Shown: positions 43,585 to 56,320, counted from the stretch's first letter. The stretch is DNA of 64,000 nucleotides from Phyllobates terribilis (GCF_046119375.1 NW_027366852.1:1-64000), one strand, 5' to 3'. Translations and numbers: made by a program. The notes: a model not told the origin generated them from the sequence alone.

Positions 43585-45068
43585 TGATCGGACCTTGTTA
43601 TATGGGGTTAACTAGCGACTATCAGACTAGGTTTAGTGGTATTTAGGTGCTTAACAAGTGGTATGCCCGGAATCCGGTTTGGAGTTCATTTATGGATTAG
43701 TGGGATGCTCGTAAGCGTTTTTAGTGGTTTTATTATGGAGATCCCGCTTGTGCTCACTTTTTGTGCATTCGGGATGGAGCTAGATGAAGTATGCCGCGCC
43801 TACACCCCAGGAGAAGCTGAGAGACAAAGTCGAGCTGCCTCGACGCTTGCAAAAGCCAGAAGTTCGTCTCAGGTGCAGAAGTCACGACTGAGATGGAGGC
43901 TCACGACCGAGATTCAGCCTCAGACAAGGTAGTCACGATCAAGACTAAGCCGCATATGAGATGTCACGATCGTGACCAATGAAGAGCGGATGAACTGGAC
44001 CAATATCACGATCGTGACCACTGTTTCACGGTCGTGACGTGGATACGGATTGCCCAGATTTGAAGATTTTATTTTGATATTTTATTAGTTATTTCCACAT
44101 ATTTTCATTTGTTTACATTTATTTTAATTTCTTTTTATTAGAGATTATATAAGGTTTAGAAAATTAGGTTTTAGCATTGATTCTTTTACGTAGAAATTCA
44201 GTAGTAGCCAGAGAAAGCTTCACATTTGTTCCATCGTTCGCTCATCTCCCCTGGTTCGTTTTCCCATCATCATTCATTGTTATTCATTGCTTTCTATGGC
44301 TATTTCTATCTAAATTCATCATAGTTCACTTCTAAGGTTGAAGCCATTGTTCTAGGTTAGTTGTGAGAATTCAAACACTTATGTTCTAATTTTAAATTTA
44401 GGATTGTTTCATAATCTCTTGTGCTTCATATTATCATTGATTGATCTTAATTTTATCTAGGTTGCAAACTAGGTTGGTTATTATCCGTCATATTGCTATG
44501 CTAGATAACTCGATTTTAAAAGTCTTGTCTTTAGGTAGCGAGCATGATTTGCATAGACTATTTGCGAGTGCTTATTGTGTAGAGATTGTGAACTTGTGTC
44601 GAGTATCGGCGATTTGCCAATGGTATTGCACAAGCCTACTTATCTTTGATCTTCATGTTGTTGTGCTTTTGAATCTTGGGATTTCCATGGTTATTGCATA
44701 ATAAGGGTTTCTAGGACTATTTGGACTAATTGCTTATTACAAACAAAGAGTAGGACAACCGGATTAAACAATCTAGAATATAAGTTATTAGGATTCGATG
44801 ATCAACATTCTATTTGAATAATGCGCTGATGCTAGAGGAGTGAGCTTTTTACCCATAATTGTTTACAAACCAATCATCATATTCCTTTCGTACTTATTGA
44901 ATTTCTTAGTTATGAAAATCAAATAAAAAAACCAATTGGTTACTACATGGTTGCATAATTGGAAATAAACTGTCTTTCTAGCTCTCTTGGGATTCGACCC
45001 CTACTTCCCACTTTACTAGGGAATTGAGTTGGGTATATTTGATAGACATAACGACTTTAGTCTCATCA
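43585..45068 (+). repeat. Athila LTR (copy A, 1484 bp)
   Basis: TGATCGGACC...TCTCATCA, homologous to 47571-49114 in reverse orientation. Confidence 0.9.
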
Positions 45069-46040
45069 AGGATCTTGTCAACTGGGTTGCTCACCGTCGC
45101 GACTCGCACCTGATAAAGGCTATGGTCCATGCTCACGAAATGGTTTGTAGCCTGGGGGAGGGTGGCGTGGCGAGTCTCCTAGATACCCTCGCTGAGTGGT
45201 GCATGGATGACAGGTTCAAGGTGTCCAAATCTTACGAATCCCTCCGCCCTAGAAGACTCGTGGTGAAGTGGGCTAAGGTTGTGTGGACGGCGCACTCTAT
45301 GCCCAAGCACTCCTTCACCCTCTGGCTCGCTTCGCTCAGGAAGCTCTCTACGTACGACAGGCTTTCCTTCCTCAGAGTCGACCCTACTTGTCGGTTGTGC
45401 GGTTCTGCCTTGGAGAGCCATGGTCATCTGTTCTTTGAGTGTTCCTTCTCCTCCACTGTTTGGCAGGCCGTATGCAACAAGTTCCGCCTCCCGAGCACGT
45501 TGTCCGCTCTTCAGAGATGCCTCTGTTGGGTGCGCCGCAATGCCCCTGTGGATGTCTGCTCTTCCAGGGCCCAAATGTATGCCCTTGTTGTAACGGTCTA
45601 CCTTATCTGTCATGACAGGAACGCGCTAATATTCTACGACAACCCCATTCCTGTTGAGGTCGTCACTCGCCTGGTTATTATGCACGTTTACCGATTGCTT
45701 CATGACATATTTTCTTATATGTCGGTTAGGGCACTCTAGGGGGTGAAGGGGTACTCTTTCCTTTGTGTTGGGTTTTTTTCCCTTTGGGGTTTTACCACAT
45801 GGAGGTTTTGATGAGGCCCGGGGTATTCTTCCCTGCTCGGATAGCTGCTCCCCCTCCATGCTTACTGGTTTCTCGGATTTCACTTGTTTCTCTCTGATCT
45901 TGGCATAGTATGGAAGGTTTGCATGTCTGTCCATGTATGCCCTCCTTTGTCTATTTGACTCTCTTGTGTGTTTGTTTTCCCGTTTTGCTTCCTCTTTTTG
46001 AGGACATATTATTAATCGAATTAGTTTTAAACAAAAAAAA
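45069..46040 (+). mobile_element. LINE 3' fragment (zf-RVT region, 3' UTR, poly(A))
   Basis: KVSKSYESLR...VVWTAHSMPKHSFTLWLA...CRLCGSALESHGHLFFEC. A-tract at about 46031-46039. This type lacks an RNase H domain. Confidence 0.85.
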
Positions 46041-53600: not shown

Positions 53601-56320
53601 AAGACATGCACCAGCTTGTCTTCCTGTTCCTTTGCAAGAGCACTTGAGATGATGATTGGAAAAGTGTTTCCTTGGCCAAGGAACGCATACTTTAGGTGCA
53701 AAGGTATCTCTTGTAGCTCAATGGTGGATGCTTGCACAATAGAAGGGAGCGGTTTCTCGCTCGAAAATGTAAGTAACACGGGCCCACCGACCAAAAGGGT
53801 ACCTGGAGCATCAAACTCAGCCAGGACCTCATGCACATCAGGGGATAATGTCATACCATGCTCTTTAGAGCTCACTATGCTATTTTCTACGAAAGATTTA
53901 AGTGAATCAATCTCACACACATCGAAAATTTCCTGCACAATAGGGTCAATCACATCAATAGAGAAAACAGAGTTATCATTCATAGGATGTTCCATAGCCT
54001 CAAATATGTTAAAGCTAACTATATCTCTGTCAAACTCAAGTGTTAGTGACCCACTTGCTAGATCTATTTTAGTATTAGCTGTCTTCATGAAGGGCCTACC
54101 CAGAAGGATAGGCGCAACTTGCTTGTCATGCTCCATATCTAGCACATAAAAGTCAGCTGAAAATATCAAATTATCAACCATTACCAACACATCTTTGACT
54201 ATCCTTTTCGGGTAAACCGTTGACCTGTCAGCAAGCTGAATCACAATCCCTGTTTCAGTCAGGGGTCCTAGCCCTAGCATCTTATATAATGAATAAGTCA
54301 TGACATTAATAGAAACACCCAGATCTAGCATGGCCTTATTAATCCTCTTCTCACCGATAATACAGGGAATACTAACCATACCTGGGTCCAAGCACTTCTT
54401 TGCTATCTTTTGCTGGATTGCCGCAGAAACTCTCTCGCTGACCTGCACCTTTTGTTTCCCTTTCAGCTTCTGGTTCCTCTTGATGGTGCAGAGCTCCTTC
54501 AATAACTTAGCATAACGAGGAATACTTTTAACGAGGTCAATCAAAGGGATGTTTACCTCACACTTACTAAACGTTTCGAAGAGTTCCTTTTCATTCGCAG
54601 GTCCGCGTGTGTCCTTCAAGGCTTCTGGGAATGGTGCAGGTGGTTTCTCGGAGTATAACGGAGGAAAGTTGGGCCTCACATAGTTTTCTTGCCGTATCTT
54701 GAAGTCACCTCTGTCCTCATAGTCGTCGCCAGCACCTACTGGGGCGGAGTCACGGTCATGATCACTAGGTTTCGGTCGTGACATTGAAGACTCAGGCTCG
54801 TCGTGTGCAGAAGGAGGACGTGACAATTGGTCACGGTCGTGATTAGCTAAAATGGGGATTAGTCTCGATCGTGACATACTGTCACGGTCGTGACCCTCTT
54901 CGTTGATTTTTTCGGAAACCAAATCACCGCCTTCTCGGTCGTGATCAACTTGTCTCGATCGTGACGTTTCCTCTGAGGCAAAATCTCCATCGTGACACCC
55001 CTGTCTCAGTCGTGACAACTGTTCAAACTCTTTCCGCAACATCTCTTCTTCTACCTTTTCTTCGAGTTTTCGTCCACTTCTCAAATGCATAGCGCTAATC
55101 TTCTCTCTCGGATTCCTCTCGGTTTGAGAGGAAAGATTCCTCGAGTTTTGTTGCGTGAGGTTAGAGACAGCTTAGGCCAATTGCCCAAATTGTTTCTCGA
55201 GACTCTTGATGCTTGATTTGGTTGTTTGGACATGAGTGGTGAAGTGCTGGGTCAAAGATCTGAGCATTTCCTCCATAGATGGCTCTTGGGGTTTCGATTG
55301 ATATGGAGCGTGGTAGTGGTTGTTTTGGTATTGATTTGGGTAGTAGCCTTGATTTTGTCCACCAACTGGATCATTCCTCCTAAAGCCAGGATTATCGTTA
55401 CCTCGTTGATTATAATTGTTATTTTGGTCGTAGTGAGGCCTAGGAGGTCCGAAACCTCCCACCGCGTGAACTTCAGCAACCGTCGGATCCTGGAGTTGCG
55501 GGCACATATCAGTAGGGTGGCTCTCATCTGCGCATATGCCACATAGTCGTGCTGGCTTCTGGTTTCCGATGGCCATCCCCTTTATCAAACTATTTAGTTC
55601 AGCAAATTCACTCTTCTATTCAGCCTCTCCGGAGCTTACAACACTAGCTCCTCTCTTTGTATAGGTCCTGCCAAAACTCCTAGTCCCTTCAGCTATTTTG
55701 TTTATTCGGGCTCTAGCTTCAGCAGGAGTCAAATTCATCACACTACCGTTAAAGGCAGCGTCTACTAGCCTTCTCTCATGATCAAGTAACCCATTGTGTA
55801 GGTGGGTCACCAAGTCTTTCTCCTCGAACCCATGGAATGGGTAGCTAGCGCATAATCTCGCGAACCTCTCGACGTAGTCTTATAGTGACTCGTCATCATA
55901 TTGCTCCACCATAACAATCGCTCTTTTCAAAGCAACAACCTTCTTGGAAGGGAAATACTTACTAAGGAAGGCTTTGTGTAGCTTCTCCCAAGTGTCGATA
56001 CTCCCTGTGGGTAGAAAATAGTACCATTGTCGCGCACTATCTTTCAATGTAAGACTGAAAGCTCTCATCTTTATCTTCTCATCGGTGACGTTACTCGGCT
56101 TACTACAGCTGCAGATATCGTGAAACTCACTCAAATGCATAATCGGGTCTTCCCCAACCAAGCCATGGAATTTTGGTAGCAGATTGATGAAACCAGTCTT
56201 GAGCTCGAACGTGACACCAGCATTTAGGGCAGGCAGCATTACTCCTAGGTGTTGTTGCATCAGGTCTGGGTCCGTAATTTGTCGCAGCATTTGATTTCCA
56301 GCCATGTTGTCAATCACCAA
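50645..56320 (-). pseudogene. Athila gag-pol (gag, aspartic protease, RT, RNase H, integrase) with stops and frameshifts
   Basis: LLPKFHGLVGEDP...[98 protein letters not shown]. Confidence 0.92.

Follow-up and report, generated by a model that had tools for sequence, protein, structure and literature searches.

Clusters of a short CG-rich motif in two Athila long terminal repeat (LTR) retrotransposons, copies A and B, are described here from a 64,000-nt stretch deposited under Phyllobates terribilis (GCF_046119375.1 NW_027366852.1:1-64000), the whole of which is called the window. On balance we favour the reading that these clusters are helically phased, oriented, family-specific arrays of 12-16 bp units, serving as sites on double-stranded DNA (dsDNA) for the protein of the element's extra open reading frame (ORF), hereafter ORF2, and shielding the element from silencing. 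This reading draws on six homologous cluster sites, whole-turn spacing, stronger conservation of motif than of spacer, accommodation of the motif within the reading frame, family-to-family switching in concert, motif change that tracks ORF2 and not the adjacent protease, and purifying selection on ORF2. Its parts differ in strength: binding of the motifs by a protein on dsDNA is very probable, the identification of ORF2 as the binder is favoured by a narrow balance, and anti-silencing as the outcome is put forward tentatively.

The first-pass annotation had placed about 30 copies of a 12-bp palindrome at five places in the two Athila copies, and all five clusters were recovered, copy A being only a 3' fragment. 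Cluster 1 (43882..44037, plus strand, 6 sites) lies in LTR A, ~110 bp upstream of a TATA-like box. The other four are on the minus strand: cluster 2 in LTR B (48623..48816, 8 sites at spacings of 19, 32, 20, 31, 19, 41 and 20), cluster 3 after pol (50341..50410, two perfect sites and one degenerate), cluster 4 in the RNase H-integrase (RH-INT) linker (51953..52155, 7 sites) and cluster 5 in the gag-protease linker (54750..55015, 9 sites). Cluster 3 is the remnant of an ORF2 leader, ORF2 itself being deleted in the copy B subtype. At up to three mismatches to TCACGATCGTGA, 33 non-overlapping sites were counted (6, 8, 3, 7 and 9 across clusters 1-5); at up to two, 27 fall within 43586-56500 and 2 in the remaining 51 kb of the window. 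These 27 are far above chance, since dinucleotide shuffles (n = 200) held a mean of 0.46 and a maximum of 3 sites, and the top scorer among all 4096 12-mer palindromes had 5-6 sites per shuffle (three shuffles). The neighbouring Copia element has zero motif sites.

Over 494 sites the consensus in element sense is t-g-TCACGA(T/C)CG(A/T)GA-c, in which the left half is near-invariant (TCAC in 431) and the right half variable (GAGA in 232, GTGA in 197), with a centre of GATC in 235, GACC in 189 and GGTC in 22. The first description stands as to a 12-bp CG-rich near-palindrome, but the motif is an oriented pseudo-palindrome with unequal halves. The spacers are unrelated to one another, within and between clusters, and the only tandem structure consists of two 2-copy pairs of 19 bp, which rules out a plain tandem repeat. 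Motif columns are less diverged than spacers, a difference that misalignment of units may inflate, and less diverged than flanks except for the coding flanks of the RH-INT and gag-protease linkers, which are about equal to them. CG sites have been better retained within motifs than in the flanking sequence.

Within the coding linkers, copies of the motif fall in all three reading frames (more than one of them within cluster 5), ruling out amino-acid selection as its cause; the translations HDRD, SRSR and VTTV given earlier are correct. The frame had been described as intact, which is true of the gag-protease linker, open over all nine sites, whereas the RH-INT frame of this decayed copy holds one stop, inside the linker's first motif. 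At the four sites lying in the frame where TGA is a stop, none of 65 aligned copies ends in TGA, whereas that ending prevails at 7 of the 9 other sites; ~200-270 bp of linker has stayed in frame, with stops avoided. The use of all three frames together with stop avoidance implies that the linkers are translated and that the motif is maintained as a nucleic-acid sequence, in agreement with the cis code first suggested.

The family was surveyed through 11 of 42 other RH-INT matches, 20 of 39 other ORF2-tail matches and the surroundings of 40 of 83 PF03078 matches. The RH-INT cluster is present in all 11 other copies fetched and the gag-protease cluster in 8 of the 8 copies holding that linker; a sixth cluster, in the ORF2 leader, occurs in 18 of 20 ORF2-tail stretches, both misses being without the region. 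The clusters are thus shared by other family copies and are not private to those of the window. Three forms of the element carry them: form 1 has pol and ORF2 (L006, L025 and L027), form 2 has pol with ORF2 deleted (copy B and six others, L001, L003, L010, L012, L016 and L017), and form 3 has gag-protease and ORF2 with the region from reverse transcriptase (RT) through RH to INT deleted (about 12 loci, L021-L023, L029-L032, L034, L035 and L037-L039). Forms 2 and 3 are complementary deletion subfamilies, each amplified to several copies.

Of 40 PF03078 loci, 22 have dense family-specific palindrome clusters at equivalent places (TCTCGATCGAGA, TCTCGACCGCGA/TAGCGATCGCGA, CCGCGG(G/T)CGCGG and others), 9 have sparse ACTCGGCCGAGT and 9 have none. 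Matrices trained on LTR clusters placed 53 of 58 clusters from outside the LTRs in the correct family, and all five misses fell among three near-identical TC families; with 5' LTR clusters counted as well, the position-labelled classifier was right for 70 of 75. The motif has therefore switched together at all sites between families, a test of concerted evolution having been proposed at the outset. The accompanying idea that sequence is copied between distant parts of the element fares less well, as block copying is disfavoured by spacers that are unrelated between clusters.

The spacing of 20-50 bp first reported proved too loose, because the spacings are quantised. Start-to-start distances in the window's family are 19-20, 31-32, 40-42, 50-52, 60-63 and 70-71 bp, with none at 21-30 or 33-39. 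Other families, with different motifs, retain the 20-bp step and mostly retain 31, 41-43 and 51, the exceptions being the CCGCGG family, which also has 48-49, and the ACTCGG family, which has only 62-69. For 60 spacings, taken from one element per family with the 19-21 peak omitted, the mean cosine at 10.3 bp is 0.65 and exceeds all 20,000 null draws, although the spacings are non-independent (both LTRs were counted in some elements, the families are related, and sums of 20 and 31 recur) and motif-to-motif slips would preserve phase. From the two basic steps (20 and 31), one turn apart, and the unrelated spacers we infer a protein sitting on one face of double-stranded DNA. A metagenome scan with integrase returned 19 loci, none with an ORF2 match and one element with a spaced palindrome array, and so provides no real cross-species test. 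That element, an unrelated gypsy (L145-L147, ~4800-6700, three redundant contigs), has a TCGCTTAAGCGA/TCGCCTAGGCGA array at spacings of 19, 49, 41, 19 and 89 and a second palindrome array at 20 and 48.

The ORF2 and protease trees are discordant, which makes a test against plain linkage possible. Across seven families motif distance correlates with ORF2 at rho 0.73 (p 0.03) and with protease at 0.36 (p 0.19); with the outgroup removed the values are 0.72 (p 0.06) and 0.11. Motifs of the gag-protease linker alone give rho 0.85 with ORF2 (p 0.021) against -0.07 with the adjoining protease, and LTR and leader motifs give 0.70 with ORF2 (p 0.08 and 0.05). Motif and extra ORF thus co-vary among Athila families (rho 0.70-0.85, against -0.07 to 0.36 for protease), within the limits of 6-7 families grouped by the analyst, one exception and LTR-ORF2 linkage. 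ORF2 is under purifying selection between subfamilies, with dN/dS of 0.07-0.17 in seven pairs, 0.73 in one close pair and one further pair saturated. L067/L072 and the L063 family have protease regions 85% identical and ORF2 just 28% identical, so ORF2 is either swapped between families or evolving far faster than pol.

In a structural model of ORF2 the top match of the predicted fold, a weak and distant one, is the anti-silencing protein VANC21 (PDB 9LNJ/9LNK); a C-terminal helical region is a further likeness, and a weak, collinear alignment to the plant mobile domain (PMD) was obtained. DUF1985 (PF09331) was matched by 0 of the 95 members of the ORF2 alignment, and HHalign to DUF1985 frames gave 0.1-0.3% over 30 columns; PF10536 likewise had no match among ORF2 members. 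When the ORF2 profile was searched against the sequences of solved structures, only low-complexity matches came back, VANC not among them; a word-index protein search found one relative only for ORF2 and none for a DUF1985 frame, and the ESM Atlas returned for ORF2 only PF20167, PF03078 and unnamed clusters.

We propose that ORF2 oligomers would assemble along one face of the DNA in steps of 20 and 31 bp, at sites in the LTRs, the leader and the gag-pol linkers, which may be the places where the element tolerates insertion. Bound ORF2 would protect promoter and body, with loss of silencing marks as for VANC. It could act in trans, in which case copies with pol only, such as copy B, and copies with ORF2 only, the type that copy A resembles, would complement one another. 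In its widest form, which we offer as a possibility somewhat short of an even one, the proposal is that the Athila "env-like" ORF is not an envelope but a sequence-specific anti-silencing DNA-binder of VANC/PMD fold, each family having its own co-evolving phased code in LTRs, leader and the flexible gag-pol linkers, with pol-only and ORF2-only derivatives complementing one another in trans.

Two findings weigh against this reading: the ORF2-VANC fold score is weak, and a young Athila clade (L043, L046 and L047, copies 94-95% identical) has a long open ORF2 and no motif cluster detectable in 10 kb. The second also speaks for a host DNA-binding factor (a transcription factor, a host PMD protein or a nucleosome-related reader), for which the arrays would be family-specific enhancers or CpG-island-like elements of the LTR and the ORF2 leader, ORF2 merely travelling along. 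The densest clusters do closely precede the TATA-like box and ORF2, as the repeated-motif (RM) boxes do in Sireviruses (PMC2829016), a 10.3-bp period also suits nucleosomal DNA, and the host PMD protein MAIL2 has been linked to a palindromic motif (bioRxiv 2024.09.27.615353). We nevertheless consider a host factor unlikely, because families within the same host differ at up to five motif positions while sharing the 20-bp spacing, which is hard to reconcile with one slowly evolving factor, and because the deep gag-pol clusters, far from promoters, track ORF2 divergence.

The arrays could instead be a functionless by-product, in which template switching or slippage at a CG-rich palindrome spreads and homogenises the motif. 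Motif-to-motif deletions and duplications do occur, two 19-bp tandem pairs are present, and Sirevirus palindromes are enriched in indels of 19-22 nt (PMC4728375). Such a process is improbable in view of the unrelated spacers, the recurrence in several families of steps of 20 and 31 one helical turn apart, the better retention of CG sites in motifs, and a linker held in frame over its length. Slightly less probable again is a role in RNA, as packaging or dimerisation stems or as hairpins feeding small RNAs, as proposed for Sireviruses, whose palindromes form hairpins and are small interfering RNA (siRNA) hotspots (PMC4728375). Sense-strand clusters do fold better than shuffles (z -1.4 to -4.3, strongest at -4.3 in the RH-INT linker), but the pairing-breaking sense centre GACC far outnumbers the G-U-compatible GGTC (189 to 22), one right arm in two is GAGA, the antisense strand folds at lower energy in 5 of 5 clusters and with a better z in 4 of 5, and stems do not predict 10.3-bp phasing; the packaging stems of the first-pass annotation are accordingly disfavoured. 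Binding of Gag or integrase to the sites on cDNA, for instance to shape the pre-integration complex, would suit the spread of sites over the full length of the element and into both LTRs, which copies lacking ORF2 show too, but is the most doubtful of the alternatives, as motif distance does not track the protease region (rho -0.07 to 0.36, protease being a stand-in for Gag and integrase) and elements without RT-RH-INT keep and switch the motif.

Several known systems resemble the Athila arrays. VANC-motif co-evolution is established for VANDAL (MuDR) DNA transposons, in which, as in Athila, a short family-specific motif is clustered in the element and the accessory gene diverges with it (PMC5735166); coiled-coil oligomers are predicted for VANC and for the Athila domain alike (PMC13547354). 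Unlike VANDAL, Athila is an LTR retrotransposon, its motif is a 12-16 bp CG-rich pseudo-palindrome with two of five clusters coding, its spacers are not tandem repeats, and its ORF2 has no DUF1985 sequence match and only a weak fold match. The Athila arrays would work like the VANC system without belonging to it. Sireviruses (Ty1/copia) likewise have many palindromes, the RM boxes, ahead of both the LTR TATA box and the env-like gene, with proximal pairs, 19-22 nt indels and differences between families (PMC2829016, PMC4728375), whereas Athila is Ty3/gypsy, has the core CGA(T/C)CG in place of CGG-CCG, and carries extra clusters inside gag-pol; neither helical phasing nor a candidate reader encoded by the element figures in the accessible portions of these Sirevirus accounts.

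The PMD resembles DUF1985, MAIL2 (among MAIN, MAIL1 and MAIL2) is tied to a palindromic motif, and some Gypsy elements encode a PMD, the PMD-A type (bioRxiv 2024.09.27.615353; PMC5418596); ORF2 differs in being PF03078/PF20167, and the Athila motif targets lie within the element itself. The likeness of VANC to PMD (PMC13547354; bioRxiv 2024.09.27.615353) and Gypsy PMD-A (PMC5418596) have already been published. The short interrupted repeat cassettes (SIRC) of Arabidopsis are short direct repeats with unrelated spacers, some of them palindromic, and occur in ATHILA2 and ATHILA6A (PMC10342631); they are possibly the same feature, described without mechanism, and phasing, concerted change at many sites and a link to ORF2 are absent from the available part of that account. 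A DNA-binding role has been suggested for Retand TRP28 (PMC11963269), and the sunflower Athila extra ORF, with a predicted nuclear signal, has no assigned function (PMC11728184). The 2026 atlas terms the Athila extra ORF "poorly characterized" and "Athila-exclusive" (PMC13547354), and a 2026 methylome paper leaves open whether Athila encodes factors that influence the methylation of Athila itself (PMC12844716). Our literature search found no link between the Athila ORF and the VANC/PMD fold and no phased, multi-site, family-switching Athila motifs, although figures, supplements and subscription papers could contain such.

The assignment to Athila rests on domain order and on ORF2. Copy B, on the minus strand, runs from its primer binding site (56490-56473; 56473..56504 with the final 9 bp of the 5' LTR) through the N-terminal part of gag (55880..56344, Retrotrans_gag), an open frame of 727 codons covering the gag-protease linker, protease and the start of RT (52988..55171, Asp_protease_2 and RVT_1) and integrase in broken frames (50645..51732, Integrase_H2C2 and rve) to LTR B, its 3' LTR (49114-47571, TATATAA at 48515-48509). 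Pfam thus gives gag-protease-RT-(RH)-integrase between LTRs, the order of the Athila lineage (Ty3/gypsy, OTA), and the sense extra ORF of PF03078/PF20167 between pol and the 3' LTR was found as well, in relatives of the window's copies. An intact ORF2 relative (P0001) matches PF03078 (ATHILA) at E 4e-12, and 90 of the 95 aligned ORF2 members match PF03078 and 24 match PF20167. RNase H had no Pfam match in the copy B frames scanned. Additional RNase H (aRH) and chromodomain, whose absence characterises Athila (PMC6317226), also had no Pfam match in the frames scanned of this decayed copy, and a domain would not fit into the RH-INT linker. Copy A, on the plus strand, consists of the 3' part of ORF2 (41849..42516, the 5' part missing, homology to the family starting at ~41849 within an open frame spanning 41734-42516), the 3' untranslated region and LTR A, its 3' LTR (43585..45068), which has TG...CA ends, a purine tract before it and TATATAA at 44146-44152. 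LTR A and LTR B are 85.5% identical.

Athila env-like genes are expressed from spliced messages. Two splice-acceptor-like signals flank the ORF2 leader clusters, namely a pyrimidine tract with AG (50483..50496, minus strand) just upstream of cluster 3 and another at ~1190 of L006, which suggests that the ORF2 message may be spliced. A long inverted repeat (42633-50094) is formed by copies A and B, which face one another; its arms are 79-96% alike and enclose 2.5 kb with a LINE-like fragment (zf-RVT, 45020-45739). A Copia element (56505-63000), with Copia domains found downstream, is inserted within the final 9 bp of the Athila 5' LTR, adjoining the primer binding site, and a 3-kb tract at 34001-37000 has a G+C content of only 16-18%.

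The window and small contigs C2810-C8111 of this animal assembly (G000) are likely a large block of contaminating eudicot DNA. This is inferred because all 72 Wnt matches lie on the chromosome-scale contigs C1-C12, while matches to the Athila family, PF03078, DUF1985 and PMD all lie on C2810-C8111. RuBisCO small subunit had no match in G000, which says nothing about a partial contaminant. The Athila family is abundant in another organism's DNA, with 68,023 reads on the LTR stretch from ~6% of run X12. An F-box gene at 32615-33799 of the window is also plant-type, and a tandem array at G000:C4644:13113-21480 holds seven PMD-domain matches at ~1.3-kb steps.

Plant heterochromatin and centromeres are filled with Athila elements. 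Two meeting reports and the atlas preprint, in their accessible parts, place anti-silencing in DNA transposons only. The arrays described here point to candidates for the protein and for its site, and supply a specificity table broken down by family. If the proposal is true, LTR retrotransposons, which account for most of many plant genomes and centromeres, would gain their first example of a self-encoded, family-specific anti-silencing system; sequence-specific anti-silencing would extend from DNA transposons to retrotransposons, PF03078 would be tied to the VANC/PMD fold, and the Sirevirus palindromes may be explained by analogy.

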